From the NCBI GenBank assembly GCA_000091205.1, contig AP006502.2: DNA of 64,000 nt. One strand, 5' to 3'. Shown here piece after piece: positions 10,271 through 61,866 of this stretch. The translations under genes and the position numbers were made by a program. Every line of letters starts with the position of its first letter. Within the stretch, counting starts at the first letter, position 1. The notes under the pieces are model-generated. The model made no database searches, had not been told where the DNA came from, and saw only the letters and a list, made by a program, of their open reading frames with translations. This DNA comes from Cyanidioschyzon merolae (Eukaryota).

Positions 10271-10549
10271 TGCCCAGGTATCTTGCCTCGACTGTCAAAC
10301 AAACGCGTGACTGCCCACGTGGTGATTCGTCAAAAGCCGCACGCAGTTATCCAGTCGGGACGTTCACAGCCAAGAACGTTTTCGTAACGGTGATGAAGCA
10401 GGCGCGAATCCGTGACGCCACCGCGCACAAGTCGTCGCAGCAGCTGTGCATCGATCGGTGAACGCTGCGCTGCGGCCGCTGCTGTCGAGTAGGCGCTGCT
10501 GGGGGGCTGCAGTGATGTCCGATGAACATGGAAAAATGAATTTTGCGTT

Positions 10550-11326
10550 CTGTCCCTGTCATGCGAATGTTATTTCCGAGGTATTCTAGGTGTACAGCAT
10601 CGACATTGTCTGTGTACCAAGTGGAGCACACGGATTCGTGTGTAGGTCCAGGATTCGCGGTGGTCTTTTTCTCGGAATACGCCTTCGACGCTTTGCCGTC
10701 GGCGTTCGCGACGTCATCGGAATCGAGATGATTCGCGACGCTCTCCGAGAACACTTCAAGAAAGTAACCCGGATCATTATGCAGGGCATGCGTACGGGCC
10801 CCGGCGATTCTCCGTTGCGTACATGGAGCATGCCCAAACCGCGCATGCTCCAAGATACCGATCTCTGTTTCAGGACAGCTTGTGGGCGCAGCAGTGCTTG
10901 CCGCAGGACTGACGCGGAATAAATCGGGGTATCGTCCCGTGACGCCTTTTTCGCAAGCACATACCAAGCGTTCACTGAAAATCACTTGTGAACTGTTCGT
11001 AGACTCCGTTCGAAGCACACATCCTCGATTCCGTGTGGGCATCCACGACGCGCCATTTGACACCAGCGTGATGCCTCGTGCCTTGAACAGTACTCACCCT
11101 GACAACGGGCGAAATCGGGACTGGAAAGCCACCATCACCATCCTTTGACTGCCGAGCACGAAGCCGGCGAGAAAAGAAAAACCGGCGTGCTACGAGCTGG
11201 AGATAGTCGGGCGGAAACGGCATCGGTGTCGGAAGAGCGCGCAACGGCTTGTGTTGATGCGCATTGGCAGAGACTCGAACGCAAGCGCATACGCCTATGT
11301 TGCTACGCCTGTTCCATTTTATACTG
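10550..11326 (+). repeat. Dispersed repeat, copy F: 3'-truncated 5' portion of the family-2 TnpB-like element; direct repeat partner of 21379-22159
   Basis: ~780 bp ~98% identical to 21379-22159; homologous at nt and translated level to 60285-61026 ('AHTKRSLKITCELFVDSVRS' vs 'THAETSLNFSCEIIDSVRAT'); both copies end at the same 'ttttatactgac'. Confidence 0.8.
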
Positions 11327-13664
11327 ACGTGAATGTAACGACAATCGGGAATGCTTTGTATCGAATGGATGATCTTCTCATGAAATAGGACAGATGAAGA
11401 TTCAGTTCGCGTCTCGCGATGGACGTCCTGCGAGCGGAGACGCTCGAAGCCCAGGGCGCTCTGCTGAGTCACCGCGTTTGCCTGGCAGCAGCCTGTGCAC
11501 TTGGCAGCGCGTCGCAATGCTAGCACGCAGCGTCCTCGAGCAGTCGTCTACAGCGACATGGCAGCGCCTTTTGCGTCTATATAGTCGCTGCGACGGCGAA
11601 TGGCACGCAACAGCAAGCATCTTCGACAGCCTTGGGACTCGAAGTGTCACTGGATTCTTTAAGCTCGCATGCGCTAGCGGACCACGGGACTGGAGCTGAC
11701 GCAACATCGCGCTCTCTGTGGATGAGACAAGGCCCAAGCTCCGATGACCGTCGGCGTTCGCGTGCCTCCCTGACTTGGGTGTGGTGCTTCTATCCAGTAT
11801 CATAGACCATGTACACCGAGAATACAGGTGAGTCCATCGAGTCTCGCCTCCATTGGGGAATGCAGCACCAGGATCCAGGGAATGTAGAAGCCTCCATAGA
11901 CAGCAGGGGTGCTTTCCCTGGTTAAAGACAGCGCTCGTCCATCCGGAAAACAGATGCGGTTGGACGCATCGAACCTTTACCAGGAAAGCAACCGCATGTA
12001 ACCCAGCCAGAGCGACGGCAACACAAGCGGAGATCTCCAAGCATACCGCACTATGTTCCATCCTCCGTAGGGTGGCACGCGAAGAAGAAACCTCTCGTGC
12101 ATGTGCGTTTCAAGGCTTTCTAATGGACGACGAGGCATCACCATTGGCATCATTGGATCAAGAAGAATCGTCCTCGCTTGATGGAAGGCTTTTGCAGGCG
12201 CCGCAGCCACGCGTTTTTCTGCGCACTTCCTGCCCGGCGCTCTTTCCGTATCTAGCCGCAGAACAAGAAGCGCGAACTGTGTGGAGACCGTTTCATGCAG
12301 TGTCTGCGGAACTGACGTCTTTTATACGCCTGCAGGACTTGTGCAGGCACGTTTTCTGGTATCATCTTCGACGAACGCCAGCGTCTGCACTAGAAGTCGT
12401 CTCTGGTTGTACCAGGGGCTGCTACCCCGTTTCGTGGTGTTTCCGCTCGGAATAGGTCTTTGTGCGGGATTCGAGCGCAGCACCGATTGCAGGCCTATCG
12501 CGCTACTGGTGTCATGTTTTGCGATTGTTTATCCCGAGAGCCCAGCCCATGTTTGCAAGCGGTCCAGAACATGGACTATGTTCGCTGCTATACCCCCGGT
12601 TCAAAGCTACATTCGTGACGGAATGCGGTCCCAGCGTGTCGACGAGGAGCTCCCCAGCACGACGCCCGAAGATCGCTGTGAATCGTGCCGTACAGGAGCT
12701 TCTGCGGATACACTCAGAATCGGATGCACCGCGATACCTGTTCGGGAGCTGCTTTCACATGGAAACGGATGTGCGGAGGAGGCGCAGAACGCTGTCCAGT
12801 GTCAACCTGATAGACATCGCTCCGCACTGAAATCGTCCGCAATAACTGACCGTCCCCCGAACGAGGTTACACCAGTTGAGGATGACGAGGAGGATTCGAA
12901 CGAGGCTGACGCTGTGGTCATCGGAGCGACACTCAAGCATTGCGCCAACATGCGCAGAGACGAACAAAGTTGGGCTGTTTGCTTCTCCAAAAAACCTGCG
13001 AAAGCAGCAGAGGAGCGACCAGTCGCCGATAAGAACAGGTTCAAGTATGCTCCTTTCGCGGGGACGCTGATTCCTCCATTATAGGCCCTGGGAAACGAAT
13101 TCCGATGACGATCGTTTGATGCTGCAGAGGCCACGACTCTGCAAGTCTCGCTTCAGGATACGCGTGCGCGCTTTCCAGAAACTTGCCACATTTGCATCGC
13201 TATTCCTCGTTGCTTCGGCTGGAATCGGGTTGCACATTCACGCGCACGCTGTCTATTCCAAGCGTGACCCACGAACGTGGGGTTTTCCCAATCCAGCACC
13301 AGAGGCTGCTAGTGCTACAATAGCCTCTGTCCTCGGAAATGCGCCAAGTTCTATGCTTCGATCGTACTTGTGCCATTGCCTTTTGGCTATAACGCTGCAT
13401 GAAAAGACCTCCGTCGCTTGGTACGGCGTCAGCGCACCAAACGCGCTGCCGCCTCATCTCGGGCGTTTTCTTCAACGCCCTACAACTGCGATACTACACG
13501 GAGTCTCGCATGCCGTGCGGCACTGCTGACTGGCATGGTACTCCCTGTACGAATTTGCGCCACGTTCACTGTATCGTCCGTGCTCCATGGCTCGCTTTTA
13601 ATCGCACCCGAAGCGAGTCACTTTGGATTAGCTCGTTGAGATAGGCAGATTCGCTTCGCAGAGA

Positions 13665-14591: not shown

Positions 14592-15841
14592 TGGCGGTAC
14601 ACCCTTTCACGTTTCCGTTATCGCTCTTAGCAGGGACAGCAACTCCACGCAGAAGCTGCGAAGCAAGCAAGTACCCGCTGTAGCTCAAGGCGGACGCCAG
14701 CGCTCGACGCGTGCCTCGGGATCTTCGCACGCGCGCCTGCGCTGCCGTTGGGCAGCCGCAGGTCGCTTATGATCGATGGTTTTTTTCGATGACAAAACGT
14801 TTCCATGGACTGCGGAAAACAGATTGCGGGTAGGTAATGGCAATCGAAGAAGCGTCCATCATGGTGCTACGCCCTATCTAAAAGTTCTATTACTTATAAT
14901 TCCCTTCGGATGAAATGGTCGTTTCGTGCGTTCTCTCTTTCGCCGAGTGCCTACCGCGAGCACCCGCCGTCGCGCGTATACCGCTGGTGCGCATGCCCCA
15001 CCGAGACAGAACCGCCTTTCTATGCTACTGAGGGCGTCCGCTCGAAGGATGATTCACCTGACACAGAATCAGGGCTCATTATCATTCTGGGAGCCTGCAA
15101 GCTGCGAGGCAGATATGCCGCTTGGGGCAGAGCGAAGCGATACACTAGGAGTCTACCGCGATCAGGACGACGCCCAGACACAGCATCCCGCTCCTAGTCT
15201 CCGAATATACTGCGCGTTGACGAGTTGCTCAGGTCTCGCTAAAGCACCAGCTACTGCAGAGTCGCATGAAGCACGAGTCGGGGAGACTCGTCCGGCTCGC
15301 GGGACCACCTGCCAATAAGATAAACTTTCGATAATATGGAAACCATTTCCCCTTTTAACGGTTATCGTTGAGGGCTGCGCAATTTTCATCATGTTGCTCG
15401 TTAGTGGTTCGTCTATGTTCTTTTGTCTGCAGCGCAGTCCATACGCGCACACCCGTATCTTGTAGGCATCAGACAAGACGCGTATCAGGCGGTTGAAAGG
15501 AAACGCGATCCTGACCATGAGCTTGTAGCTCTATGGTAAAAGACGTATTAGGGTTGAAGACGTAGCAAAGTATAGTGTTTTATCCCAATTGTGCTCCAAC
15601 ACTCAAGATAGTGTATTCATGTGATTTTTCACGGTTTATAGCAGAAGCGTTCGAAGTACGTTCTTTTTCTAAAAATAAAAATAAAGTTGTGGAAATAGAA
15701 GTGGAAGATCCTGGAGAGCTGGTATCCCCGGTTGCCGGAAACAGACGAATAACATTGCGGAGCAAAGAGGAATCGGGGAAGACGAAGAAGCAAAAAGGGG
15801 AGGCCCGACGCCGAAAGCTGCAAGAAAGACGATAATGCGAC

Positions 15842-17551: not shown

Positions 17552-17653
17552 ATGGAAAAGTGTCCGGGGAGCCCCGAGGATATAGCAAAGTACGGACCGC
17601 TGACAGACGAGCAAATGGAAAGGATAACGAAAGTGCGCAGGCTACTTGCATTA

Positions 17654-17682
17654 GTGAGTAAACTCCTAACGGCACGAAACAG
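17654..17682 (+). other. Putative 29-nt spliceosomal intron (GTGAGT...CTAAC...CAG) inside the Fanzor-like gene; its removal joins '...KVRRLLAL' to 'VEFVNRDLNAAINVRRCAVLENRPPD*' (exon 2 = 17683-17761)
   Basis: Canonical GT-AG ends, CTAAC branch-point-like motif, 29 nt length restores frame exactly into the canonical TnpB RuvC-III motif; identical sequence in copy 2 (reverse strand ~35400-35430). Confidence 0.5.
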
Positions 17683-18020
17683 GTGGAGTTTGTGAACCGA
17701 GACTTGAACGCCGCTATCAATGTAAGGAGATGTGCGGTACTGGAGAATAGACCTCCAGACTAAACAAGAGGGAACTTTGATGGACAATTCTGAAAGTTTT
17801 ACTATATGAGAAAAAGTTGGAAGCAGTTGTGGGTGGCCGGTCGAACAAGTCTGGCAGGCGTCTGCACATCAGTTGGAGACGTTTCGTTTAGGGTGTGTCG
17901 TTCGCCACTACTGTACACTGCCGGCAGCATCGTTCGACTTTAGATAGGCGTTTGGTGTTGGCTGCGTCTTAGACCTATAACGAGGCAGACCGATACGAAG
18001 CTCGGTGAAAGGAGCCGTTT

Positions 18021-20922: not shown

Positions 20923-21378
20923 GCGGCGTTCGTTGCACGTCCCTTCGGCGCGAGTCTGGTGCTCCCTGGCCGCTCACGAACGTCCTCTGTGACCAGCAAA
21001 CGGGGTCGCGCTGCCTCAACCAGAGCGTCTTGCCCGTAGAAGGCATGGACTTTGCTCAAACTCGTACAAGTGCCTAGCGGTGGTACTCAGCACGTGCGAC
21101 CAGGCAAGCAGCGGCAGCAGCAGCAGAAGCGAAAACATCGATCATTCGGTCTGTCGAGTCGCGCACCCGCAAACGCCACCTACCTCCGCGGCACCCGAGC
21201 TCGGCAGAAGTTCTCTTGCTGCATCGACGGCACGGCGCTGTCGAAGCGTTCAAGGTAAGTATGCTGTTGGAGATGAAAGTCAGGTCTATGAGGTCAGTGT
21301 TTAGCACTGTGCCTCATTTCGTGCCCGGAGACCTGACGTCAGCATTCGTGATAGACTGAACTAGCGCACTGGACTACC

Positions 21379-22159
21379 CGCTTTGTCCCTGTCATGCGAA
21401 TGTTATTTCCGAGGTATTCTAGGTGTACAGCATCGAAATTGTCTGTGTACCAAGTGGAGCACACGGATTCATGTGTAGGTCCAGGATTCGCGGTGGTCTT
21501 TTTCTCGGAATACGCCTTCGACGCTTTGCCGTCGGCGTTCGCGACGTCATCGGAATCGAGATGATTCGCGACGCTCTCCGAGAACACTTCAAGAAAGTAA
21601 CCCGTATCATTATGCAGGGCATGCGTACGGGCCCCGGCGATTCTCCGTTGCGTACATGGAGCATGCCCAAACCGCGCATGCTCCAAGATACCGATCTCTG
21701 TTTCAGGACAGCTTGTGGGCGCAGCAGTGCTTGCCGCAGGACTGACGCGGAATAAATCGGGGTATCGTCCCGTGACGCCTTTTTCGCAAGCACATACCAA
21801 GCGTTCACTGAAAATCACTTGTGAACTGTTCGTAGACTCCGTTCGAAGCACACATCCTCGATTCCGTGTGGGCATCCACGACGCGCCATTTGACACCAGC
21901 GTGATGCCTCGTGCCTTGAACAGTACTCACCCTGACAACGGGCGAAATCGGGACTGGAAAGCCACCATCACCATCTTTTGACTGCCGAGCACGAAGCCGG
22001 CGAGAAAAGAAAAACCGGCGTGCTACGAGCTGGAGATAGTCGGGCGGAAACGGCATCGGTGTCGGAAGAGCGCGCAACGGCTTGTGTTGATGCGCATTGG
22101 CAGAGACTCGAACGCTAGCGCATACGCCTATGTTGCTACGCCTGTTCCATTTTATACTG
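21379..22159 (+). repeat. Dispersed repeat, copy G: second ~780 bp 3'-truncated family-2 fragment, direct repeat of 10550-11326
   Basis: ~98% identity over the full length to 10550-11326; ends at the same 'ttttatactgac'. Confidence 0.8.
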
Positions 22160-22751
22160 ACATTTGCTGAGCACGTTCCCCGCTGAATACCGGCGGGTCG
22201 GCGGCGTGCATGCACTGCTCTACGGAATGTTCGGCTGATGTTGTCAGCGCAGCAGACGTCTTAAACAAACATTCGACGCGGTCGTGGTCCGCTTGGCTCG
22301 AACGCTCGACTAAAGGAAGAGGCTCGAACAGGCGTCCAGCCACTCTGTCTGGCAGGTGCCATCTATTTACCAAGTACCAGCGGAGAATCTTGATTTTATG
22401 CCCACGTACTCTGCTGCAAGAACACCTATTGCCTCGTGTACTAGTCGTTCCGAGCGAATGCCCACGCGTACGGCGTATAGGCAACGCTTTCTCCCGCCCC
22501 GGCGCCAGCCAGCTGTACGAGAAAAGCACGTCACGCACCAAGCAGGTCACCACCTGTCTGCCGGGGATGCTCCCGACGGGCAAGAACCACTTGTGTCGAT
22601 CGTAATGGTAAACCAGCAGTGCCAGCATAACAGACGTCAGGCCGCGAACCCTCCACGCACACACACACAGTCGCTGTTTGACTGATACTGTCCTGTCGAG
22701 AAAGCGTCCTCGTCTGCCCAGCTACGCAGCTCCGGAGCGCCGTCCAACGAC

Positions 22752-35140: not shown

Positions 35141-37679
35141 AGAGTCGAACGCTGCTGCCGGCAGTGTACAGTAGTGGCGAGAAGCCCGCCCTAGACACAA
35201 AGTCACCGAGTGACGTGCAGGCGCCTGCCAGACTTTTTCGACCGGCCACCCACAACTGCTTCCAACTTTTTCTCATATAGTAAAACTTTCAGAATTGTCC
35301 ATCAAAGTTCCCTCTTGTTTAGTCTGGAGGTCTATTCTCCAGTACCGCACATCTCCTTACATTGATAGCGGCGTTCAAGTCTCGGTTCACAAACTCCACC
35401 TGTTTCGTGCCGTTAGGAGTTTACTCACTAATGCGAGTAGCCCACGCACTTTCGCTAGCCTTTCCATGTGCTCGTCTGTCAGCGGTCCGTACTTTGCTAT
35501 ATCCTCGGGGCTCCCCGGACACTTTTCCATCTAGACCCTCTGAAGTGTACACCGCAGTTCATGGTGTGTATACGATGTTCGAAACTCATCTACCGGGTTC
35601 GTAACGAAACGCCGTGCGCACTCCTTGTACACCCTCGTCGTTGGAGCTGGTGTACACCCTTTTTGGGTCTTCCATCGCCCTGCTCGGTATGCTACTACTA
35701 GCCTCTGATTTTCATCCTCCTTCAAGGCGCTCAACTCATTGAAAAAATTCGCGAACGCCCGCTGCTTTCCACAGTATAGATTCATACGCAAACGAGCCCA
35801 TCTGGGCATTGTATACTCCTCCCACAGCGCATCCCAATGCGCAACACGAACTTCCATGAATTTCCGAAAAGCTTTAAAGTCTGCTTCTCGGCTCGTCACC
35901 TCGCTCGTGGCTTCCAGGTGATCCTTCATTCCTGCATCCCATGCAGAAATTTTCTTCCATGCATTCATTATACCGGATTCTCGGTAGTATCTCGCTCTCG
36001 AGATTCTCAAAAGACGCATGTCTTTTTTGACGTACGTTGCCGTCAGTCCCATCTTCGGCACGCTTCGGTGCTGCAATGGTGATGATATTCGTATTCCCCG
36101 GGTCCGCGCCAACGACAAAGTTGTTATCATGCACTTTTTGGGTCGCAGGACCCGCCTTCTTCTTTTCTTCATCCTTCGTCCCGCCAACCATAAAGGCGTT
36201 ATCCTGCACCTCCTGCATCACAGGATCCGCCTTCTTCTCATCTTCATCCTCCGTCACGCCAACGACAAGGTCGTTATCCTCCGCCTCCTGCGTCGCAGGA
36301 CCAGCCTCCTCCTTTTCTTCATCCTCCGTCACGGGCGCAGCCGAGGGCGGAACTGGACGATCTTTCTTCAACCGCCGGTAGTGTACACACAAGGCTACCC
36401 CATCGGTTTCGATCATCCCAGTGAATACCTTTTGCTAGCTCACTTTGAGTCGTTTGAAATCGAAGATATTCTTCCAGTACGTCTCCCTATTCTCACCGGT
36501 GAACTCTCTTCTCCTTACATCGAACTCTGAACTGATCTCCTTCATGATGCCATGAAGGACGCCGGAGTCGATAGTCCCAACATGTGACTTGATGTTTCAT
36601 AATGGATCGACGTTGAAGCGCTTCCCCATTAGGACAGCCTTCCGTCTCTCCGACTCCTCATTTTTTCCTCACGCAGCTTCACCTCTGCCTTGCATTCGAG
36701 TTCACGGTCCAAAAACACGAAATAGCGCAGGATGAGGCGATAGAATCTTTCCTTATCTTTTTCAACTCGGATATCTTGTCTGTTGGATTGACCAGCCCCA
36801 AGATCGCACGGTGCTCTTGTATAGCCGCACGGGTCACAGAAGCTTCATTCCTGCTCCTGCGTGACGTCTTCTTGTAGACGAATCTGAGTTCCTGTTTATG
36901 ATGGCGATCTTTTGGGACGCCATCGATAATGGCCCATATCGCCCTGCGAGACAGGCCAGCCTAGAGTGCAAAGACGGAGCGTATCATGAAACGATCGAGC
37001 TTCATGGTCATATGGTTCTTCAAGTTCGTGATGTACTTCATCGCCCCGTAGGTTTAAATATTCGAGTCACCCCTGTGTCGAGCACCGTCAAAGCAGGATT
37101 TGGCGTAATTTTAGTGGAGTGCATGTGCTCGCTCATCTCTCCTCAACGTATACCCTGTGCTAGCCATCGGGTCACGATTAAAAGTCTTGTCGGAATGTTC
37201 GTATGGAACCTCGACTTCTATGATGCCCGTCGTGTCGCGATACATCTTCCTGGCCATATGCATCATTCCTCAAACAGCCTTTTGCAATACTCATTTAGTA
37301 ACACGCGACTCGGTTTTTGATGGCCTCTTGCAACTTTTCCTTGTATGCATCCTTGATATGGCGTGGAAGATAGGCTTTCGTTACCATTTTGTCGTACTGT
37401 CGTCTTTCTTGCAGCATTCGACGTGGGGCCTCCCCCTTTCGGTCCTTCTTCTTCTTTTCCTGGTCTTCTGGACTCGGCACTGATTTCTGTTTTTTTTTCT
37501 GGCAGCCGGCGACCCTGGCCCTACAGGATCGTCGACCTGCTTTTTCATAACTTTCCTTTTTTTAGTTGTTTTGAAAAAGAACGCTCTTTGAACCCTTCTG
37601 TTGTATACTGCGAAAAAGCGCTTTACTAGACTTGTTTGAGGTGTGAAACGCAATCGAACTGAAAGACTGTACTTTGCTA
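35141..37679 (-). mobile_element. Fanzor1-like element copy 2, inverted relative to copy 1 (~2.54 kb); degraded: frameshifts plus an internal ~90 bp tandem triplication upstream of RuvC-I
   Basis: Reverse-complement similarity (~94-97%) to 15563-17941, including 3' tail, 29-nt intron and TAG; ORFs 35531-36187 and 35874-36416 (-) carry the Fanzor sequence in different frames; repeated '[18 protein letters not shown] / [20 protein letters not shown] / [21 protein letters not shown]' units. Confidence 0.75.
35531..37480 (-). pseudogene. Fanzor/TnpB-like nuclease pseudogene (copy 2)
   Basis: N-terminal 'KKKKDRKGEAPRRMLQERRQYDKMVTKAYLPRHIKDAYKEKLQEAIKNR' (CAA where copy 1 has TAA), RuvC-I '[16 protein letters not shown]', C-terminal '...[20 protein letters not shown]'; reading frame broken at least twice. 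Confidence 0.7.
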
Positions 37680-38359
37680 TGACTCCAACGGAAATCCAAC
37701 TTCTACAGCTGAACAACACACTACTGATCAAGATCACGGTTCCCTTCAACGGCGGCATGTGCGTCGTGTCTCATGCCTGCCTGATATCCCAGGTGCGCTC
37801 ACTGACCGCGATGCATGCACCGCGCGAGACGCTAGACCCATCGATGAAGGACACGTGTCCGACACCCCGCATTGGCACATGCGTGCTCTCACCGGCGCTC
37901 TGCGGCACACGCGGCAGCGGGTAGTTTCAGAAAAAAGAGAAAGCGGACACTCCTCCGCGGATGATCTGAGCTTACAGACTTTCAGTTCTATTTCGTTTCG
38001 CCCCCGCTGCAGTGTATGTTAAGACGTCGAAATAACTGTGCAACTTACCGTATATATCGTTGGCAAATTGTCTGCAGGATATATTCATTACTGAACAGCT
38101 CATGGAGGACTGCGTTCATCCTTGAGGTCAGTCGCACAATAATACGCAGATGGTTGATGAACACTGCAAGTAACAAATATATGCGCACCGCACCAAAAAC
38201 TGGTATTCTCAGCGCATGCTTGCCGTCAATGGTAGAAAACGATCCGCTGATAACCTTACGGAAACTTAGTGCAACGAAAGTGGTCACAACGGGCGTCTCT
38301 GTTTCCCAACACCTTGTCCATACTGTCCTGAAAACACCGGGATACAGGCGCAAAAGAAG

Positions 38360-39480
38360 ACTCTATTCATTCACGGCCATCCTCTGCCAAAATCGCAATG
38401 ACAGCATTCCGAGGACTGAGCGATCGGTATGAGGCACAGGGTCGTCGGGTTTGCTATTCCATTCGTTGAGACTTTCTTCGGACGAAACGGTCCGAGTATA
38501 TATGGGTATTCGCGGAGCGGGGCCCCCATCGTAAATAGGATCGAAATCGAAGAGAACGAGGACATCTTCATCAGTCTTAGCTGTAGTGGATTCATTTGAC
38601 GGCCTCAGTTTCGCTCCTGCGGAAGGCACATACAACAGAACCCTCTTCGCCGGATCATTGAAGACTTTTCTCAGACGTCTGGTGAGGTCCTTCGATTCCA
38701 CAACGTTGCATTTCACCATTACCCTTGCATTCGAGTTTTACCGAATCTTTCGGGATAGAGCTGCTTTCTATTCCCCCGTGCGCTCCTTGATTCAACCCCA
38801 TCGAGGCCGCGTTTTGTATCGTGAAACGTCATGGTCGCTCCACTGGGCAGATCTCCGACGAGTTCGCCGTACCGTGACACACCGGGGGCGCATTTCGTCT
38901 TTCTTCCACACGTCCTTCTCTGTCCAAGAAAATTCTCACCGTAGTGCATCATGAAGTGTGTTCGTTTTGAAGAAATACAATATCCAAGAGATGAGCTGGG
39001 GTGTACACTCCAGAACGTCGAGATGGAGAGAGGCCAGGGAAGCGCTTCGGCGATAGAAGAGCACGAAGAGCTGGCAGAGCAGCAAACGGCACAGAGAGAA
39101 CGTGTTCGAGGAATCTTTGCATTCATGCGTTCAACGAGAGGTAATAAACGCATGGAGTCCGTGAACCAAGACTTCAACGCCGTCATCCATATCAAACGAT
39201 GCGTGGTGCGGATGACGAGATGCGCGGACCTGACACGATCCATCTTTATGGGCCAGCCTCTCAGGCTCAACGTGTACAAAGAGAAATTGAAATCGATAGC
39301 AGGGGTCCGGTCGTTAAAGACTGGGAGGCATCTGCGCGTCGTTATTCATTTACCCTCCATAATTGTGAAACATTTTGTCTTTCACCGACTCTACAGAAGA
39401 CGGCAATGGACTTGGGCTTGTGTCCCCGAAACGATCGATTGCAGTGAAGCATGTGGCTCCGCTTTGCACCAAGGCGACAT
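38360..39480 (+). mobile_element. Family-2 TnpB-like element fragment (copy C), degenerate
   Basis: + strand encodes '...GNKRMESVNQDFNAVIHI' (degenerate RuvC-III, ~39161-39193); 5' part homologous to 44270-44810 (rc) and to the 780 bp repeat; no intact ORF. Confidence 0.45.
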
Positions 39481-40196
39481 AGACTGATAGAAATATCTGG
39501 ATGAGTTCCCAATCTTTGGTTTTTTCGGGTTCTTATTGCATCATGGACGACATCGCGCACCGCAAATCCTCGATTCACTGGAAAAGTGAGCGCTTGCGTG
39601 TGCAGCTGACAACGCACTCGCATACGGGATTGTACAGAAGAAGCGCGCCATAGCACGGTGCGACACCGGCGAAGTAGATTGCATCTATCCCTCTGGACCC
39701 TTCAACGGCATACACCAAGCTATAAAGCAAGCGTTTTCGTGCTTCAGGGCGACACCGGTATTACGCAATGTGGTAGACGCATAGGCATATCTCACGAGAG
39801 TCAGGTGTCACGGTTGCGAGGCGCTCAGCGAGGCTGTGTACCTAGAACTTGAAACAGTCCTGCGAAGCGTAGGTCGCAACTCTCGCATCTGCATGGAATG
39901 CACCAACGACTGACAGAAGCGGCGAAATCGGGACCTGAACGCTTCTATCCATTTCCTTTCGACAACGAACAACGGAACTGGAGGCAAGGAATACCCCAAT
40001 ACATTTAAAAACGTAGATGAAACAGTGGAAAAAGAGACCAGTTGAAGAAAAAGCTCCCAATGACTGGTATTGATGATCGTAGGAAAACCCGTAAACACTG
40101 GAGTGTATGCCGCAGTCAGCAAAACGGACCCTTTCCAGGGTCGTCTGACATGACAGCATCTGGAGAATCCACGAATACGCAGCTGCAGCAGAGGCA

Positions 40197-41827: not shown

Positions 41828-43486
41828 CTAGGGTCCCGTTTGACCGGTGGCCTGCAAACCAGCCCATCTGAAGAACTGGACAAAATGGATTCCTCCGTAA
41901 AAATTGTTCAGGAATCGCAGTGAAACAATCAACGAGCGATTCAAGACAGCGTGATTCGCGAAAAGCATATGTGAGAGTCGTTCGAGGCCCTCTACCAGCT
42001 GGAATCGCGGATTACTGGATAGCGCCATGAAAGCGCCCCAGCCGATCGAGTTCGGGAGCACTGGCGGCATCGGCCGAACGGGCGTGTAGTGGGCATCCAT
42101 GGCCTTGCGCAGGTGCAACAGGCCATAGGTGATGGCGGTGCCGACGACGCCACTCGCAAAACCGATCAAAAAGTACTGCGCAGATGTATGCAGAACGGTG
42201 AGCACTCGTGACGGCAGCGTGTACACTCGCAGTGGTGGCAAGGACTTTTCGAACGCGTTCGCTGGCAGTGACGTTGCCCAATTGAGATAGCGCTGCCATA
42301 CGCTCCCGATTAGTCCTCGCTGAACGGCACCCGTTTCCAGCTGCGACATCTGCGGGAACGGCGTGTAGGGCGCAAGCAACACCACAAATGAGGCCTCCAC
42401 AACGGTGCCGACGACCAGATCAGAGAGCACATATTCGAGCTCGTCGACGAGTTCTCTTCCTCGTACGAGAAACTCACCGACGAGTTGTGTTCCGTTCCCG
42501 ATGTATTCCTGGGCCAGGAGCTTGAAAATGAACTCGGGATCTGCGAGCACGCGATCTCGAAAGAACCGCCATTGCAAGAGCCACGCCACCAAGCCGCGGT
42601 CCTGGGCAAGGTAACGGGCGAGCGTTCGTCGCTCTATCCAGCCATGTTGGATCGCTTGAACGACTTCCGGCGGCAAGCTCTGAAGCGAACGTTTGTACGC
42701 GCGAAGCACACCGGCGATCTCTGGATCCGGAGACCAGTAGTCGCCGTGTTCGTCCGGGCCTTCGTAACGGCCACCCGAGCCACCATTGCCTTTCCCGAAC
42801 GACCCGTTACCGCCGTTGTTGCCGCTGTCGACGCCACTGGTCGGGCTGGGGCCGCTCAACCCGTGGTCTACGTTCTCCGACAGCGACGCCGTCTCGCTGC
42901 CAACAACAGTACCTGGCTGTGGCTGGGATCTGTGTCGATCACGATCCTCCAGCCCGAGGCAGCTTGAAACAGACCGCGTCCGCGCGAGTCCCGGAAGCAG
43001 GTGGCGATCGCTGTTACGTCGCGACGCTGAGGATCGGCTTCGCCACACGCGTATGTTTCCCAAAAGTTTCACCGGGGGATCACCATGAGAACGCACACGA
43101 CGTCGGGAAACGAGCGCCGGCAGCGCTGCTTCTGTTCTGGAGTACGCTCGGCGTGGGACGCGGCCCCCGTGGAGCGCCCTCACCAGTTGACGCTCAGGAC
43201 AGTAACGTCCGCGCCTAGATGCACCCGCAACTGCTCCAGCTGGCGTCAGAAATGCACAAAACATATGTTTAGTGCAAAAAGGGTTGCCTAACCACTCGGA
43301 CACGCCAGTGAAGTCAGTGTACTGGCGACGAGATTCGAACTCGCGAGCGCATACCGCGCAGTGGATATCGCAGACCCGGATGAGCCGCTTAAGTCCACCT
43401 CCTTGCGTGGAGCAGAAAAATGGTCGCTTATTCAGATATAAAGACAGCGGCGCTATGACTAGCTTGCGACTGATTTTTCCTTTCAA
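41828..43486 (-). CDS. Membrane protein resembling RETICULATA-related (DUF3411) envelope proteins; the true start is likely internal
   Basis: 'RVLADPEFIFKLLAQEYIGNGTQLVGEF' resembles the RER-family 'ADPxFLFKV' motif; C-terminal hydrophobic segment 'YFLIGFASGVVGTAITYGLL'; glycine-rich linker. Confidence 0.35.
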   Translation of the reverse strand: MKGKISRKLVIAPLSLYLNKRPFFCSTQGGGLKRLIRVCDIHCAVCAREFESRRQYTDFTGVSEWLGNPFCTKHMFCAFLTPAGAVAGASRRGRYCPERQLVRALHGGRVPRRAYSRTEAALPALVSRRRVRSHGDPPVKLLGNIRVWRSRSSASRRNSDRHLLPGLARTRSVSSCLGLEDRDRHRSQPQPGTVVGSETASLSENVDHGLSGPSPTSGVDSGNNGGNGSFGKGNGGSGGRYEGPDEHGDYWSPDPEIAGVLRAYKRSLQSLPPEVVQAIQHGWIERRTLARYLAQDRGLVAWLLQWRFFRDRVLADPEFIFKLLAQEYIGNGTQLVGEFLVRGRELVDELEYVLSDLVVGTVVEASFVVLLAPYTPFPQMSQLETGAVQRGLIGSVWQRYLNWATSLPANAFEKSLPPLRVYTLPSRVLTVLHTSAQYFLIGFASGVVGTAITYGLLHLRKAMDAHYTPVRPMPPVLPNSIGWGAFMALSSNPRFQLVEGLERLSHMLFANHAVLNRSLIVSLRFLNNFYGGIHFVQFFRWAGLQATGQTGP

Positions 43487-44810
43487 GTCCGTTTTGGTGC
43501 ATATCGTTTCGTTCAGGTGCGTACCGGGACCGGCCGCCTGCTATCGGTGTCGGTTCGTTGATCTGCGCTTATTTCGCGCATTAGAGGCCTGTCCCACGAA
43601 GGCTGGATCGTGTCAGCGACTTGGGTCTCGTCTCCAGCACACCGCATATCGTGTGATATGGATGGCGGCGTTAAAGTCTCGGTTCACGAGATCCTTGCGC
43701 GCATTGATTCTGGTGGAACGCGCCAATGCTAGCATTGGTCGAACTCGTGCCCACAGTGCCACTTCAGTCTCGTCATCGCTCCGTCAGAGGCAGACACCCT
43801 TTCTGGTCAACTTCTCCTTTTTCTTCGTCTTCTTCTTCATCACTTGCTCTGCGTCGCTCAACAGTCGGCGAGAAGAGGATTTTTTCGATTTTCTTCGGCG
43901 GTTGGTGGTGACGGCTCTCCAGGATCCTCGACCTGCGTACCAATATCATTCAGTTGGAATTTTCGTTTCTTCAAATGAATGCACTTGTTTATGCCCCTAG
44001 GCGAGGTCCTTCCCGTATCGAAAAGCACTTGCTGAAGGAAGACGAAATGTGCCCCATCATGTGACAATGTGGAGGACGCTTCAGCGATTCGCCGAATAGA
44101 GCGATCCTTACTTTTCACGATAGAAAGCACTCCTTCGATTGTGCTGAATCACCGAAATGTACGGAGGAATGGGAAGCAGCTCTGGCCCTATAGAATCGGG
44201 AAACGCTAGAACGCAAGTGGAATGGTGAAATACCACAATATCCAACAGAAAGACGTCTTCAGACCTCAGAGGAAAGTCTTCAACGAATTGACAAAGAGGT
44301 TGGTGATGTTGTACGCGCCTTCTCTACGTGCGCAACTGAGGCTGCCAAGTGAATCCACTGCACCCAGAACAGACGATGATGTCCGAATTCTCTCCGAGTC
44401 CGATCGTACATACAACGCGTTCCTTCTCCGCGAAGATTCATAGACCCTCTGATCGTCTCGTCCGAGGCAATTCTCATCCATCTTAGAAACAAACAGACGT
44501 CCCTGCGTTCCATACCTATCGCAACGTTGCAGGAACGCTTTAGGTGCAATATCGGTGCAAGATGGCCGTGCTTGAAACTGGACTTTTTGCGACTGTATCC
44601 CAGAGGTTTCAGGACCATACGAACAAGCAGTTGAGAAACAGAGGCACCTGTGGTGGCTTCTATCGTCGCTTTTTGCTTTCCATAAGTTTATGGACAGGTC
44701 GACTTCTACCATCGACCGCAAGCACGCTTCGAGTGCAAATACTTCACTCTTTCAGTGTTCCTGAACCATCTGGGTCCTGTAGTATGACTAACATGGGTGA
44801 GTAATGGAGT
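43270..44810 (-). mobile_element. Family-2 TnpB-like element fragment (copy D), inverted relative to copy C
   Basis: Reverse strand at ~43680 encodes a RuvC-III-like motif (the + strand reads 'AALKSRFTRSLRAL', the mirror of '..NAAINV..' regions); the 44222-44810 part is homologous to 38363-38954 and to 260-560. Confidence 0.45.
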
Positions 44811-46421
44811 CCTCCTTGCACTGCTCACTAAACAATACGTATCCTACAGGCAATTCGTATACAATCTATACCGTAAAGTTCCATCTTCATTTCGATCTCT
44901 TGCTATTTACCGCAGCAGGGGAGTGAAACAAATTTGAGTTGAAACCCATAATCGGTGCCGCATTCGGGGCAGCCTTGACGGCGACGCGGCATCCTAGTAG
45001 AGTAGGATCTATCGACGGCAAGCGAGCGAGCAAGCGAACTACTCCGTGCTATGCATGCCGTGAGGTGTCCAAGTACCGCCAGCCGGCGGTCAACACCTGC
45101 GGTACAAATAACACTGCCGCTTGACGGATGCTTCTCTGGTTGCTGATGCCCGAAGCGCATTCGGGTGTCCCTGGTCCATGGAAACGAGCTGTCGAGGGGA
45201 AACATGGTCGGTGAGCGTGCATACTGGTAACACTGACGGGCAATGTGTCGCGCGTCATACGCTCATCTGCATCAACGTCAGGTCTCGAGGAGGAAAGGCC
45301 AGGTCCGCGCGTATGCACTGTTCAGGGATTTCCGTTCCATCATTCCGATAACGATGCGCGCATGTCCAGCAGTTTCGAAAGGATGCGCATCACGCCAAGA
45401 ATGCCGCAGGCCAAAAATTTCGGTACGCATTGCTGCCGCCACTAGAGAGCCAGTTCACCGGGACGTATGTGCTAATGCACTTGTGCGGCAGGCACACGCG
45501 TTTCCGCACTTGACAGGATCTGACGCTGACGACTGCAGACGCTTCTCCTGCCCGCGGTATCACTTGAGCGCTACTTCGTCCTCGGCTCAGTTGCGAGGAG
45601 GCGAACGCATGCGCCTCTCCAGATGAGTAGCCTTTTCGTCGCTAGAAAAGAATCCCATGTACCACTGGAGTATTGTGGGGCGTGACGCTCTGAGATGTTA
45701 TCCTTGGCAATTTACAAAGTACCCACTCGAGCAAGAAATGTACGTCAAAAAACATGCGAGGCGCAGTGAACGAGGCGTGCCATTTTTCATCGTACATTAG
45801 CTACATGCGACTCGTGTGGGCGCGATGTGCAGGAAACACCTTACGGACGCTTATCATGAAATTCTCGTGACTCTCACTAGTCTCGACGAACAATCCAAAT
45901 CGTGATCCAATCGAAGCAGCAGCAGTTAGGTTTTCACTCCAAGTCGCGGGATCCGGTGATTGCTCTTCACAAGACGGCCACGCTAAGGTAGCGCACATTT
46001 TGGTTTATGGAGGATCCATGCATTGACCTAGGAGCTCTTGCATCCGCAATCGTTTTCAGCGTCCAAGGAAGCGATCCTGAATCCACTCCAGCCTCCACGA
46101 CGTACTACGATCCCCTGCCAACGCTCTTCGTCGGGAATGATCGTGCAATGCTACCAGCAGCCAGCCGGGTGCCGAACCAAACCTAGGTGCCTCCTTCGAT
46201 ACCCGATATGCCGCTCACGCACGAACGCAGGCTTACAGAGCAGCGCTCAGGCGTCTTGGGGGTACCAACTCGACGCTGTTGCCGCGCATATGACGACGTA
46301 CTGAATGCCCAACGCATCGAATGCGAAGAGGCTCCCATGCAGCCATGCATGCCGCACTGATCGGGCTATCGTCACGCGTTCAGCACCGACTCTTTTTATC
46401 GAATGGATCCAATCTCACATG

Positions 46422-47913: not shown

Positions 47914-48149
47914 AGCGGTGGTAAACGTTGCACGGCGCGATGCGCCCCTGGTTACCCACATCGCTGCGTATGTCATGCTTCATTTCGTGTCTCATAGCGG
48001 ATGCTACGGCCGTGTTCGATTCGAATGCGACGATGAACGATTCGCGCTGATCCTGTCGTTCGCTCATTTTCCGAACTATTTTAGATGTTCAGCCTCGACA
48101 TGCAAGGTGCAGCAGTCAGAGCGTACGGCTAGGCGCCTTGTATAAGGAT

Positions 48150-49080
48150 ACTCGGTCGTCGTTCGGGGTAGCTCCTTTGGATCAATGCCGGTTGGATTCG
48201 GTACGTCACTGGTATCCATGTGATTCGCAAAGACATTGAACGAGGGTTCGCCAAACTAGCCGATATGATTATCCGATAAATATGCCCAAGCCTCCATGAT
48301 TCTCCTTTTGTCATATGCAGCGTGCTGAATCCACGCATGCTTCAAGTCTTCGACCGTTGTGTTTCGAAGAAATTCGCAGGGCGCAGCAGCTGGCGCCGCT
48401 GGATTGACGACGTAAAATACAACTGCAGGTCGTCTGCTAGCGACTTTTCCATAAGCTCACACCCGAAAGTTCACGGAACCGTTCCCGTCAAATCATCGAT
48501 ACTGATCCACGGACGAGGCCTCCTCTGTTTGTGGCCGTAAATAACATGTCAGTCTACAACAAGCTGATACCTCGAACGAAATATGCTCCCAGAGGCTCCC
48601 GTCTCTCCTGTTACGATGGCAATGGATTTTGAGCTCGGACTTGCGTCATTGGAGCAATCGCGTTGAGCGGAAAGTGCGTCACCGCTTTGCACAAAAGGAG
48701 CCTATACGCATCGAAATTGCCGGACTTGTTCTCGAGACAGGATTTTCCTTCCAGTACTTGCTTCATCATGGACAACATGGCTTCTTCGGATCCTCTGTAG
48801 AATGGAACACGTTGGGCATAATTCTACAGCAGACAGCGTGCTCGCCGAGGGCATCACCCAGAAGAATCATGTTATGGTCGGATATTGTAAAGTGCGTGGA
48901 AACGGAGGAGAGCATTTCGGAGAGCCTCCTGTGTCAGTCAGGGGCATCTGCCGAGCGATAAAGCAAGCGTTCACGCGCCACCCGTCGACGCTGGAATTAG
49001 AAGATGTGATGGACATATGGAAACGCTTGACCACAGTCACCTGTGACCACTGCAAAGCGTGTACCGAGGCGGAATATTAA
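48150..49080 (+). mobile_element. Family-2 TnpB-like element fragment (copy B); retains the canonical zinc-finger cysteines but is truncated before RuvC-III
   Basis: '...ELEDVMDIWKRLTTVTCDHCKACTEAEY*' is homologous to copy A 'VVDMYEHLTTTKYH...CLCIKCGDN'; 5' part (48180-48400) is homologous to the 780 bp repeat; '...ETEESISESLLCQSGASAER*' vs '...ETKESIQESLPYPSIACTER*'. Confidence 0.5.
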
Positions 49081-49429
49081 GAAGATAGACATGTCGAGCG
49101 AGGCTTCGGTCGCAACTTCCGCCTTTGCACGAAATTCATCGACAACGTCCGAAAGTAGTGAAATCAGAGCGTTCACACCGCCGCCAGCTCCCTGCAAATG
49201 CTGACGACGGATCTAAAGAAACAGTAGAAACAGGCGCATTCGTAGCCAGAGATCACAAGGACCTAAAGGAAGCAGTCGAAGAAAAAGCTTACAACGGCTG
49301 ATGTTGATAACAATGTTAAGAGAACCAGTGTTTCATGTGTATGCCCAAGTCAGGTAAGTTGAGCCTTTCCATTTGCTATCGACATTTCGCGTTGCCACTG
49401 GATGCATACGCATACGCGGCGCTGTGCAG

Positions 49430-50095
49430 GTGCCCAACACCGCAGGAGAACTCGAAACGCCGCCCGCATCCAATCGATTTGGGGAAAGCGCCGGCCAATA
49501 TAAAAGACTGCATAATTCAAGAAAAAGCATCCAATCGATTCGGGGAGCAACGACGGCCAATGTAAAAGACTGCATAATTCAAGAAAAAGCATCCAATCGA
49601 TTCGGGGAGCAACGCCGGGCAATATAAAAGACTGCATAATTCAAGAAAAAGCATCCAATCGATTCGGGGAGCAACGACGGCCAATGTAAAAGACTGCATA
49701 ATTCAAGAAAAAGCATCCAATCGATTCGGGGAGCAACGCCGGCCAATATAAAAGACTGCATAATAAAAGACTGCATAATAAAAGACTGCATAATTCAAGA
49801 AAAAGCATCCAATCGATTCGGGGTGCAACGCCGGGCAATGTAAAAGACTGCATAATTCAAGAAAAAGCATCCAATCGATTCGGGGTGCAACGCCGGGCAA
49901 TGTAAAAGACTGCATAATTCAAGAAAAAGCATCCAATCGATTCGGGGTGCAACGACGGCCAATGTAAAAGACTGCATAATAAAAGACTGCATAATTCAAG
50001 AAAAAGCATCCAATCGATTCGGGGTGCAACGCCGGGCAATGTAAAAGACTGCATAATTCAAGAAAAAGCATCCAATCGATTCGGGGTGCAACGCG
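49430..50095. repeat. Minisatellite: ~10-11 tandem copies of a ~62 bp unit ('gcataattcaagaaaaagcatccaatcgattcggggagcaacgacggccaatgtaaaagact') with 16 bp sub-repeat expansions ('ataaaagactgcataa')
   Basis: Directly visible periodicity; the ORF track shows phase-shifting repeated pseudo-ORFs (62 is not a multiple of 3). Confidence 0.9.
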
Positions 50096-50195
50096 CACGG
50101 GCACCTCATACACAGATCCGCCGCCAGCGATTGATGCCGAGGCGCGTCTTCCGATCCTAGTCAACAGGCTTCCAGGGCTACGCGCTCTGCTACGA

Positions 50196-60135: not shown

Positions 60136-60284
60136 CCGAAAGCTCCTGGCCAACGAACACGGGTACCGTAACAGCGAGAACCGCGCAGGCGTTGCGTGCC
60201 GAAAGGGCCAGATCAAAACGAGAGCGCTGAAAACTGCGCACTCCATATCTTTCGATCGATTTTCCGGAGCTTTCATGAGATATA

Positions 60285-61400
60285 CAGCCTCGACATTCCA
60301 AGTGCGACAATGAGTGATTACGGATTCATGCACAATTTTAGGATGCATGGTCTTTTTTTTCTGAGGTGACTCGTTCGATGCTTTGCCGTCCGAGTTTTTA
60401 CCATCACCGGAATCGAGGTGATTCGCAGCGCCAGCGATCGGTGATTCGTTAAATAACCGATACCATCACCGGGCTCATACGTACACGCCCTCATGCTCCT
60501 CGTTTCCTTGCGTGCAGTGTGCTCAAATCAAGCATTTTTCTAGATTTCGATCTTTCAGTTTTAAGGCAGCTCGTGGGTTCAGCAACTGATGTCGCCTCAT
60601 GAACGTTGAACAAACCTGACGTCATCCCTTGACGAGTTCCGCACGGACTCATGCCGAAACTTCGCTGAACTTTTCATGTGAAATAATCGATTCCGTTCGA
60701 GCGACAAGTCCTCCTCTCTTGTGGAAATCTATGAAACGGCATTCAGCGCAAGCATGGAACCCTTCACGGGATATGCTCCCAGGGGTGACCGTCTCTTCTA
60801 TTTGCGAGGCAATGGTTTCGAACTCTGACTTTAATCATCACGGAGATCGCTCGCAAAGGAGAACGCGTCATCGGTTCGCTGGAAAGAAGCGCTCACGGAT
60901 CGGAATATCTCGACTTGATCTTCAGCATGGATTTTGCTTCCGGTACTTGCTCCATCATCGACAATATCGCGTTCCACAAATCGTCTATCGAATAGAACAG
61001 TGTGCGCTTGCGTGTGCAGTGGACAGCGCACTCTCTGAGAAGATCATTCCGAAAAGCCCGCGATCACAGGATGCAGAATCGGGCGCGGAAACGAAGGAGA
61101 GCATACAGGAAAGCCTCCCGTACCCGTCAATAGCATGTACTGAGCGATGAACGACGCGTTCTCGAAGAATAGCGCAGCGCTCCAACGAGGAACTGTGGTG
61201 GACATGTACGAACACCTGACCACTACAAAGTATCACCGCGGCGAGGGACGCATTTGGGCTGTATCCAGAGAAGACCAACCTGGCGAGCGAAGTTTACACC
61301 ACAATGCCTGCCTGTGCATAAAATGCGGTGACAACAGCCGAATGCAGCGAAATCTGGACTTGAACGCAGCCATTAACGTCGTTTGACCGCTGACAATGAA
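60285..61400 (+). mobile_element. Family-2 TnpB-like element (copy A), the most complete copy (~1.1 kb): 5' region, body, and C-terminal zinc finger plus RuvC-III; one frameshift
   Basis: 61147-61386 encodes '...HHNACLCIKCGDNSRMQRNLDLNAAINVV*' (CxxC plus 'RDxNAAxNI'); upstream 'TVVDMYEHLTTTKYH' aligns with family-1 '[12 protein letters not shown]'; 60285-61026 is homologous to the 780 bp repeats. Confidence 0.55.
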
Positions 61401-61830
61401 GCTGCAGTGACAGGAATGACCGGTGCCCTTAAAGTCGTAGATAAGAGAGAGGAGAGGGAAGCAGTCGGAGAATAATCCCGAAAAAGGCTCGTGTTGATAT
61501 TCGTGGAAAGAGAACCCAACTTTATCATGCCCGCCCGAGTTGCGTTCGTATACCCATCCCATTTTACTCGTAGATGGGTACAGAAGCATCCGATTTGGAG
61601 AACAAGACCTTGTGTGCCGCAACATATTCATTCCACGTCAGTGGACACACACACAGAGGCATTTCTGCGCATTTTTCGATTCGAAGATGCGCGTCCTCGC
61701 AAACATTTGCAACAGTCTATTGTAAAGCGTACATAGCCTCAGCTCGCTGGCTAGCTCCACAGTAAAAGTGTCGGCGCATGGACGCTACTCTGAATGAAGC
61801 CACGTATACAGTTGGCTGGTTCGAGTTCCG

Positions 61831-61866
61831 CAGCAGCAGCAGCAGCAGCTGCTGCTGCTGCTGCAG
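61831..61866. repeat. Perfect palindromic microsatellite (CAG)6(CTG)6
   Basis: 'cagcagcagcagcagcagctgctgctgctgctgctg' is its own reverse complement. Confidence 0.9.

Follow-up and report, generated by a model that had tools for sequence, protein, structure and literature searches.

The repeats designated here as family 2, found in a 64-kb window (the whole stretch of 64,000 nucleotides that was analysed) of the Cyanidioschyzon merolae genome, very probably (we put it at about 0.85) represent a dead, non-autonomous, internally deleted Tc1/mariner/IS630 transposon with a Fanzor1 remnant, left by a mariner-type Fanzor1 carrier. The capture of Fanzor1 genes by Mariner/Tc1 transposons with TA target-site duplications has been described, and chimeric and non-autonomous relatives are frequent among these carriers; for C. 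merolae a single Fanzor family is listed, CMe-1A, with class unknown and ~150 copies (Bao & Jurka 2013, PMC3627910). Family 2 is a new, dead member of the class described in 2013, new relative to that C. merolae listing. The value of this result is mainly corrective: what had been called 'TnpB' at the level of motifs is the tail of a gene on a different kind of transposon, rather than a new compact RNA-guided nuclease.

The window is part of chromosome 20 of C. merolae 10D, as eight of its ORFs are exact matches to proteins within BAM83169 to BAM83188, and its genes are of eukaryotic type with few introns, NMD3, Kri1, Nramp, RETICULATA and an ABC1 kinase among them. DNA profiles (nhmmer) resolved two repeat families within it, family 2 and the family Q, both of which are true dispersed repeats by blastn self-comparison and nhmmer, and assigned five copies to family 2 proper (Table 1). 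The first-pass annotation had placed seven pieces in one family; those at 10550-11326, 21379-22159, 48150-49080 and 60285-61400 do belong together, whereas those at 260-560 (-), 38360-39480 (+) and 43270-44810 (-) are Q, which has a CMe-1A-like tail. The 3' end of copy A is followed by a TA dinucleotide at 61579-61580, copy B carries FIMDNMA (D2) as well as the TTVTCDHCKAC string already noticed in it, and copy C3' adjoins the 3' end of a Q copy (37928-39418). Copy F retains 540 nt from the 5' end and 235 nt from the 3' end of the element, with the last ~15 codons of the Fanzor part, and is 99.4% identical to copy G over 778 bp; both are MITE-like non-autonomous elements of 0.83 kb, devoid of coding capacity and with both parental termini kept. 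Many near-identical proteins occur on hot-spring metagenome contigs as well, which made it possible to gather further copies: a metagenome scan added about seven independent loci on Cyanidioschyzon-like contigs. All copies, in the window and in the metagenomes, are colinear, and the untruncated ones measure ~1.35 kb.

Table 1. Coordinates of family 2, Q and CMe-1A features in the 64-kb window
Feature	Position	Strand	Basis
Family-2 copy A, full-length deletion derivative, 1379 bp	60200..61578	+	nhmmer 60235-61600; termini from 11-copy end alignments
Copy A, degenerate 5' TIR (family consensus CACTCGTGTCAGATTCAAATAGAAC, TA before it)	60200..60226	+	end alignments
Copy A, Tc1/mariner/IS630-type transposase remnant, frameshifted	60280..60990	+	Pfam DDE_3, NCBIfam IS630, phmmer
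Copy A, deletion junction between transposase and Fanzor1 remnants	60975..60998	+	homology ends/starts
Copy A, Fanzor1 C-terminal remnant, ~130 codons, one frameshift near 61058	60992..61386	+	A4 profile, tblastn, PF07282
Copy A, 3' non-coding tail, with 3' TIR at about 61552-61578	61387..61578	+	end alignments
Family-2 copy B, full length, ~1.38 kb	48007..49391	+	nhmmer 48030-49419
Family-2 copy C3', 5'-truncated	39388..40157	+	nhmmer model 568-1384; tblastn P0102 39590-39961
Family-2 copy F, MITE-like second-order deletion	10510..11337	+	nhmmer model 1-540 + 1105-1353
Family-2 copy G, internal deletion as in F	21343..22163	+	nhmmer, self-comparison
Q repeat, distinct but related family	37928..39418	+	nhmmer; DDE_3; tblastn
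Q copy	43455-44999	-	nhmmer
Q copy	1-717	-	nhmmer
CMe-1A, published Fanzor1 family of C. merolae	14787-17939; 35143-37786		window

Pfam scans of the individual ORFs of copy A gave no match; decay of the copies is too far advanced for this, and a consensus was required. It was built from 13 heavily decayed copies, of which ~11 are independent, with some ambiguous residues set by hand and one frame change, inside a poly-A run, joining its HTH and DDE parts. Identity of the copies to this consensus is 65-77%, and the divergence between copies shows neither codon-position bias nor periodicity. With a previous consensus of four copies we had taken the sequence preceding the zinc ribbon to be Fanzor-like and had considered 'AMD(FE)LGL' and 'VLDSDLSH' as RuvC-I candidates; these readings were abandoned when the 13-copy consensus revealed DDE motifs there, in another frame. 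The 13 copies examined have their transposase-Fanzor junction in common, and none of them is intact, in agreement with the initial statement that no copy has an intact ORF, and no family-2 ORF longer than ~220 aa was found among 5.8 billion predicted proteins, those of Cyanidioschyzon-like contigs included, which argues that the family is dead and probably inactive at present. An intact master copy, which the first-pass annotation advised looking for, was likewise not found in C. merolae and Cyanidioschyzon-like contigs; a gene pair of the parental type does exist on a metagenome contig, as described below.

The termini of the element are those of a DNA transposon. Family 2 is 1.38 kb long (the initial estimate was ~1.1-1.5 kb), with terminal inverted repeats (TIRs) of ~27 bp and TA flanks, and its consensus runs from CACTCGTGTCAGATTCAAATAGAAC, preceded by TA, to GTTCCATTTTATTCTGACATGGGCG, followed by TA, 21 of 27 positions agreeing when the 5' end is compared with the reverse-complemented 3' end. 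The 3' tail is conserved among the copies up to ...TTCCATTTTATTCTGACATGGGCG, beyond which comes TA, and even F and G, the MITE-like copies, have kept it. The TA dinucleotide itself is found at 4/11 of the 5' flanks and 5/9 of the 3' flanks, most of the others being one base off TA. An inverted-repeat search of single copies detected no TIRs, which are visible in the consensus only. Family 2 has the TIRs and TA target sites of the Tc1/mariner/IS630 (ITm) superfamily.

The 5' side of the element, about 60% to two-thirds of it (consensus nt ~80-795), is occupied by the remnant of a transposase. Consensus nt ~80-400 correspond to a bipartite helix-turn-helix (MYSLDIR...FGVAPSTLCRW...SVSRQLVGAAIRAAGLTRKK), and nt ~430-800 read PPLFVxIDETAF...GYAPRGSRL...VIxAIA..G...FIMDNIAFHKSSIE, in a frame that differs from that of the Fanzor part. 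Copy A preserves the order double HTH, D1 (IYETAF at 60727-60744; IDETAF in the consensus) and D2 (IIDNIAFHKSSIE at 60954-60992; MDNIAFHK in the consensus), with the third catalytic motif and the C-terminus missing. Pfam DDE_3 scores 36.9-43.1 bits against the consensus (raw frame 1: 36.9 bits, E 4e-9), above its cut-off of 28.6 bits. The NCBIfam IS630 transposase model reaches 66 bits with the frame-joined consensus (E 3.5e-18, model 19-238 of 299), which falls short of the equivalog cut-off (100 bits) as a truncated sequence would be expected to do, and HTH_Tnp_Tc3_2 gives E 0.003. An intact transposase, P0266, matches the raw copy A ORF 60682-60825 by phmmer (E 3.5e-4). These similarities identify the remnant as a DDE_3/IS630-type transposase with a bipartite HTH at its N-terminus. 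Its catalytic triad is incomplete, as D1 and D2 are present and the YSPxxNPIE motif is deleted; this third motif, which in relatives reads VPPYSPWFNPIE or SSYSPDYNPIE, is kept in P0266, in Q and in L027, a metagenome locus discussed below. The string 'YSPRGSP' (frame 1) was considered as a candidate for it and discarded, since in the Fanzor frame these nucleotides encode QRALACAAD, a strong match to intact Fanzor1 proteins.

On the 3' side, the last ~400 nt of coding sequence are Fanzor1-like, again in a frame different from that of the transposase. The motifs of this part are a "VIVGYG" strand, "WEHLTT", a CxxC...CxxC zinc ribbon and "NRDLNAAINIL". In copy A they take the form of an 'ITGCRIGRG' strand, PVPV, VVDMYEHLTT, a degenerate CxxC...CIKC ribbon and NLDLNAAINVV before the stop codon, and the ORF 61147-61386 (+) does read ...TVVDMYEHLTTTKYH...CLCIKCGDNSRMQRNLDLNAAINVV up to its stop, with the motifs quoted from it originally. 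The zinc ribbon is HLTTVKCHRC...LCMKC in the consensus, TTTKYHRG...CIKC in copy A and TTVTCDHC...CTKF in copy B, single copies being degenerate, and the RuvC-III 'RD' motif, apart from the two versions just given for the consensus and copy A, appears as NRDLNASIHF in copy C. Judged by these motifs, the 3' part carries both the [TS][TS]xxCxxC...CxxC zinc ribbon (PF07282) and the RuvC-III RDxNAAxNI signature of TnpB/Fanzor, as the first-pass annotation had recognized. Profile searches agree with this assignment. PF07282 (Cas12f1-like TNB) already gave 26.5 bits with the 4-copy consensus and rises to 33.5 bits (E 4.8e-8; cut-off 26.3) with that of 13 copies, for which NCBIfam guided_TnpB yields E 5e-5, covering model positions 328-388 of 389 only. 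A Fanzor1 profile (A4) made from 18 full-length relatives matches raw ORFs, and hence independently of any consensus, in copy A (61144-61383, E 6.6e-9, model 589-662 of 692) and in copy B (48667-49077, E 4.9e-9).

These values bear on whether the TnpB-like C-terminus might be a chance likeness within an ordinary Tc1/mariner transposase, 'DLNAAIN' mimicking 'SPDLNPIE'. A D/E-LNPIE motif is indeed found towards the C-terminus of Tc1/IS630 transposases, and the element is otherwise a DDE transposon, but the Fanzor1 profile matches the raw ORFs of both A and B at about E 5e-9, the consensus is 42% identical over 200 aa (E 3e-48 with P0089) to the C-terminus of an intact 756-aa Fanzor1, the zinc ribbon and 'VIVGYG...PVPVK...WEHLTT' are colinear with Fanzor1, and the genuine third DDE motif of the relatives is located elsewhere and missing from family 2. 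A coincidence of this kind deserves practically no credence, and the 'DLNAAINV' similarity that suggested the relationship in the first place has homology behind it.

The sequence P0089, found by searching with the Fanzor-like part of family 2 and 42% identical to the family-2 consensus along its entire length, is in turn 93% identical to P0092, an intact protein of 756 aa, over residues 540-756 of the latter (exhaustive HMMER search), and many of its relatives are 636-798 aa long, with RuvC-I as GxDPGR (GLDPGR or ALDPGR). The profile of 18 relatives recognizes the solved Fanzor1 structures 9cf0 (E 1e-14), 8gkh (E 1e-9) and 9cer (E 3e-6), and weakly the Fanzor2/TnpB-like L79 structure (E 0.004). 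It was the only query to reach Fanzor1 structures; the consensus, the A2 profile, P0089 and P0102 found no useful match among PDB sequences. Profile scores, together with the length of the relatives, their GxDPG motif and the alternative Glu at T[ST], argue for Fanzor1, and not Fanzor2 or bacterial TnpB, as the class to which the remnant belongs.

The two remnants meet at a sharp junction. Transposase homology stops after D2 and Fanzor1 homology begins directly, at consensus nt ~780-800, where family 2 reads YRMEQRALACAAD against FRLAQRALARAAD of P0089/P0092, and in copies A and C, as in the consensus, the Fanzor part is read in frame -1 relative to the transposase. With the full-length proteins P0092 and P0102 as tblastn queries against the window and fetched loci, the alignment to family 2 runs from residue ~521 onward only (in copy A, from residues 545/576). 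Family 2 lacks RuvC-I together with the entire N-terminal ~550 aa of Fanzor1. The motif defined for TnpB/Fanzor is D-X(125,275)-[TS][TS]-X-X-C4 zinc finger-X(5,50)-RD (Bao & Jurka 2013, PMC3627910); in family 2 no RuvC-I aspartate lies in frame 125-275 residues upstream of the ribbon, that region being DDE transposase in the other frame. The RuvC-I proposed originally, 'RIGISRLDLQHG' / 'IEIAGLVLETG', falls in the transposase between D1 and D2, in the wrong frame, the true RuvC-I of the parent ('GLDPGR' in intact relatives) having been deleted.

This anatomy makes it extremely unlikely that family 2 is a self-contained, OMEGA-type miniature nuclease gene of ~370 aa, TnpB/Fanzor2-like and with its RuvC-I near the proposed segment. 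The TNB and RuvC-III motifs do exist at the C-terminus, frame 3 of the consensus stays fairly open over most of its length, and the element is close in size to bacterial tnpB-only elements. On the other hand, the upstream 800 nt match DDE transposases, in the other frame and above the Pfam curated cut-off; the intact relatives are proteins of 636-798 aa with a 'GxDPGR' RuvC-I, align from residue ~521 onward only, and group with Fanzor1 structures, L79 scoring only E 0.004; and TIRs with TA flanks characterize Tc1/mariner rather than IS200/605/607-type elements. The description of a miniature TnpB/Fanzor2-like element, about 60% of which is in fact a DDE transposase remnant and whose intact relatives are long Fanzor1 proteins, has to be given up; that of a decayed, non-autonomous derivative is correct.

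We have also considered a nested insertion, by which unrelated Tc1-like and Fanzor-like fragments would lie side by side and form no single mobile unit. Islands of transposable elements do occur in the window, e.g., at 35143-40157, but the same junction, order and ends are found at at least ten genomic loci, bounded by matching TIRs, and such a coincidence is scarcely to be believed. Since the junction is shared by these loci within the TIRs, the short form itself must have transposed.

The deleted-transposon reading predicts a full-length parent with both genes, and this architecture can be recognized outside C. merolae. A search with the transposase part of family 2 retrieved P0266, an intact 307-aa transposase with HTH_Tnp_Tc3_2 and DDE_3, which starts MYSLDLR (MYSLDIR in the family-2 consensus) and shows 32% identity over 99% of the query. 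It is encoded on two metagenome contigs, in both of which the next ORF lies 93 nt downstream. In the 3273-bp contig the transposase gene (110-1033) is followed by that of a 636-aa PF07282 protein (1126-3036); in the other one the downstream ORF is cut at 576 aa by the contig end. This gene pair has the predicted parental organization; the ENA contigs ERZ1426603 and ERZ1426850 carry the transposase with its Fanzor1. Neither C. merolae nor Cyanidioschyzon-like contigs yielded a full-length parent, and the parent is modeled on other organisms. The locus L027, on a metagenome contig of 33% GC, comprises a transposase end with VPPYSPWFNPIE, the first ~23 Fanzor codons and the last 216 codons, in the gene order of the P0266 contig, and is a second, independent deletion derivative; its DNA is 91% identical to the intact gene in L029. 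Its 216-aa ORF was evaluated as a genuine short Fanzor-like gene and rejected, as a 93%-identical sequence forms the C-terminus of a 756-aa protein and the first ~23 codons are kept upstream of the deletion.

One might still see in family 2 a selected functional unit, fusion or gene pair, made of the DNA-binding module of a truncated transposase and a short Fanzor zinc-ribbon protein. The Fanzor C-terminal end has been kept by three independent derivatives (family 2, Q and L027), and the L027 ORF of 216 aa is open in 33%-GC DNA. However, copies A and C and the consensus have the two parts in different frames, so that no fusion protein is encoded, the transposase part has no third catalytic residue, and family-2 copies give no signal of purifying selection; L027, with its first ~23 Fanzor codons and 91% DNA identity to the L029 gene, looks like a recent deletion. 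We regard selection for such a unit as very improbable.

For the internally deleted transposon that we favor, the following origin can be proposed. The ancestor would have been a composite of ~3.3-4 kb, in the order TIR, ~300-aa transposase, ~640-760-aa Fanzor1 gene, TIR. One internal deletion, presumably a single event, would have removed the C-terminal part of the transposase with its third catalytic residue, the spacer between the two genes and ~550 codons from the start of Fanzor1, which encode WED/REC and RuvC-I. The product would be a 1.38-kb element without a working protein, as the remnants are in different frames. With both TIRs kept, a transposase acting in trans could have mobilized the short form, by cut-and-paste into TA sites; it may then have multiplied in the Cyanidioschyzon lineage and undergone neutral decay.

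Family 2, Q and L027, although deleted independently, retain the last 90-215 Fanzor codons and the 3' UTR up to the TIR. We mention as an unlikely possibility, alongside the lead given below by Q on CMe-1A and mariner, that this 3' segment may encode an omega-RNA or another cis-acting module. If so, the short elements would be omega-RNA-bearing satellites, served in trans by Fanzor1 and transposase. Rfam gave no match, and the 3' 306 nt of the consensus fold with z = -1.9 relative to mononucleotide shuffles, dead copies being unable to show covariation.

Compared with described carriers such as PUl-1, PUl-2, PGv-1 and ROr-1/2 (PMC3627910), family 2 has the same TIRs and TA, with a 5' DDE transposase followed by a 3' Fanzor1; unlike them, it is a relic with ~75% of the transposase and ~27% of Fanzor1, it resides in a red alga, and its transposase is closest to IS630/DDE_3-type profiles. 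Full-length relatives resemble the Fanzor1 proteins of Parasitella parasitica (9cf0), Spizellomyces punctatus (8gkh) and Guillardia theta (9cer), with profile matches that span the RuvC-I region and the zinc ribbon with RuvC-III. In contrast to these solved nucleases, family 2 keeps the last ~130 codons only, and for this reason it cannot be a nuclease. It shares the TNB zinc ribbon and the RDxNAAxNI motif with the TnpB of bacterial IS200/IS605/IS607 and with eukaryotic and viral Fanzor2, but it has neither the rest of the TnpB model nor a serine or Y1 transposase, its ends are TIRs with TA flanks, and the intact proteins closest to it are long ones of the Fanzor1 class. Besides CMe-1A, at least two other transposon families of Tc1/IS630 type with a Fanzor1 gene were once present in C. 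merolae and its hot-spring relatives. The 'unexplored reservoir of OMEGA-type elements' announced by the first-pass annotation is an overstatement, as CMe-1A was published in 2013 (PMC3627910) and all the family-2 copies found are dead. The intact metagenome relatives (the 307-aa transposase with its 636-aa Fanzor1, and the 756-aa Fanzor1) are possible starting points for collecting the Fanzor1 diversity of extremophilic algae.

CMe-1A is represented in the window by an ORF (15842-17551) that matches the CMe-1 protein (supplement of PMC3627910) and by a 630-bp stretch (14787-15417) with 80% identity to the 5' end of the published CMe-1A consensus. Family 2 and CMe-1A share a genome, the Fanzor1 class and an old, decayed state, as well as the VV.YG..R strand, P.P, the alternative Glu before T[ST] and NRDLNAAIN; their common C-terminal ~150 aa, which align colinearly with the 4-copy consensus, are 27% identical, and the two are distinct lineages, as originally claimed. 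CMe-1A is 3.2 kb long, with long Fanzor ORFs, no transposase and no reported TIRs or TSDs, whereas family 2 has a DDE transposase remnant and TIRs and lacks the Fanzor N-terminal part. The Q repeat is built along the same general lines as family 2, but its remnant of a Tc1/IS630-like transposase includes the complete set of three DDE motifs, the third being IPPCAPxFNPIE (Pfam DDE_3 against the frame-joined Q consensus, E 3.4e-11). Its 3' ~400 bp are CMe-1A-like both in DNA (nhmmer) and in protein, with 37% identity (tblastn, E 2e-11) between the CMe-1A protein and Q at 38981-39229. No clear TIRs could be defined at the Q termini from the 3-4 copies available. By joining a Tc1/IS630-type transposase to a CMe-1-type 3' end, Q might class the 'unclassified' CMe-1A as mariner-associated. 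Elements abut one another in islands of the window, as at 35143-40157, where CMe-1A, Q and family-2 copy C3' follow each other.

The Q repeat, which is distinct from family 2 (the dead, internally deleted Tc1/mariner/IS630-type transposon with a Fanzor1 C-terminal remnant), consists of a 5′ part that is the remains of a Tc1/IS630-like transposase, in which none of the three DDE motifs is missing, and of a 3′ end, comprising the Fanzor C-terminus and the 3′ UTR, that is common to Q and the published C. merolae Fanzor1 family CMe-1A. The termini of Q are not definable from the 3-4 copies compared. As CMe-1A was listed as of "unknown classification" in 2013 (PMC3627910), this combination of a transposase remnant with a CMe-1A-type 3′ end may be relevant to the placement of that family. 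The complete CMe-1A element of the window carries a 569-aa Fanzor1 ORF, interrupted ahead of the zinc ribbon.

Coordinates of the CMe-1A copies, the solo 5′ module and the Q repeat in the window
Feature	Position	Strand	Remark
CMe-1A, complete element	14787-17939	+	5′ 630 bp 80% identical to the published consensus
CMe-1A, second copy	35143-37786	-	without 5′ module
TE-N2_CMe-like 5′ module, solo	909-1547	-	~190 bp away from a Q copy
Q repeat	37928-39418	+	
Q repeat	43455-44999	-	
Q repeat	1-717	-	

Between the Kri1 and FAD-synthase genes, copies of three repeats directly adjoin one another in a transposable-element island (35143-40157): CMe-1A (-), Q (+) and family 2 (+, 5′-truncated). A further, weak CMe-1-like Fanzor fragment is found at 27853-28185 (+) (118 aa aligned by tblastn at 29% identity, E 5e-5), enclosed by an ORF at 27754-28308.

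Apparently intact relatives are found in metagenomes. Among ENA contigs of ERZ1426603 and ERZ1426850, one of 3.3 kb encodes two apparently intact proteins, a Tc1/IS630-type transposase of 307 aa and, after it, a PF07282 protein of 636 aa; another locus, L029, encodes an apparently intact 756-aa Fanzor1 (207-2477) in DNA of 33% GC.

The two MITE-like copies of family 2, spaced 10.8 kb apart, are 99.4% identical over 778 bp (10551-11328 versus 21384-22161); their flanking DNA is unrelated and their initial ~45-55 nt, although family-2-like in each, differ from one another. This near-identity looks like the result of ectopic gene conversion or partial duplication between old insertions, rather than of recent transposition.

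Repeats of other kinds lie downstream of the two full-length family-2 copies. Starting 75 bp from copy B, a tandem array (49466-50103) contains ~10 copies of a 62-bp unit, 94-98% identical and with internal 15-bp sub-repeats; ~250 bp from copy A, a perfectly palindromic trinucleotide tract (61832-61866) is made up of (CAG)n with (CTG)n directly after it.
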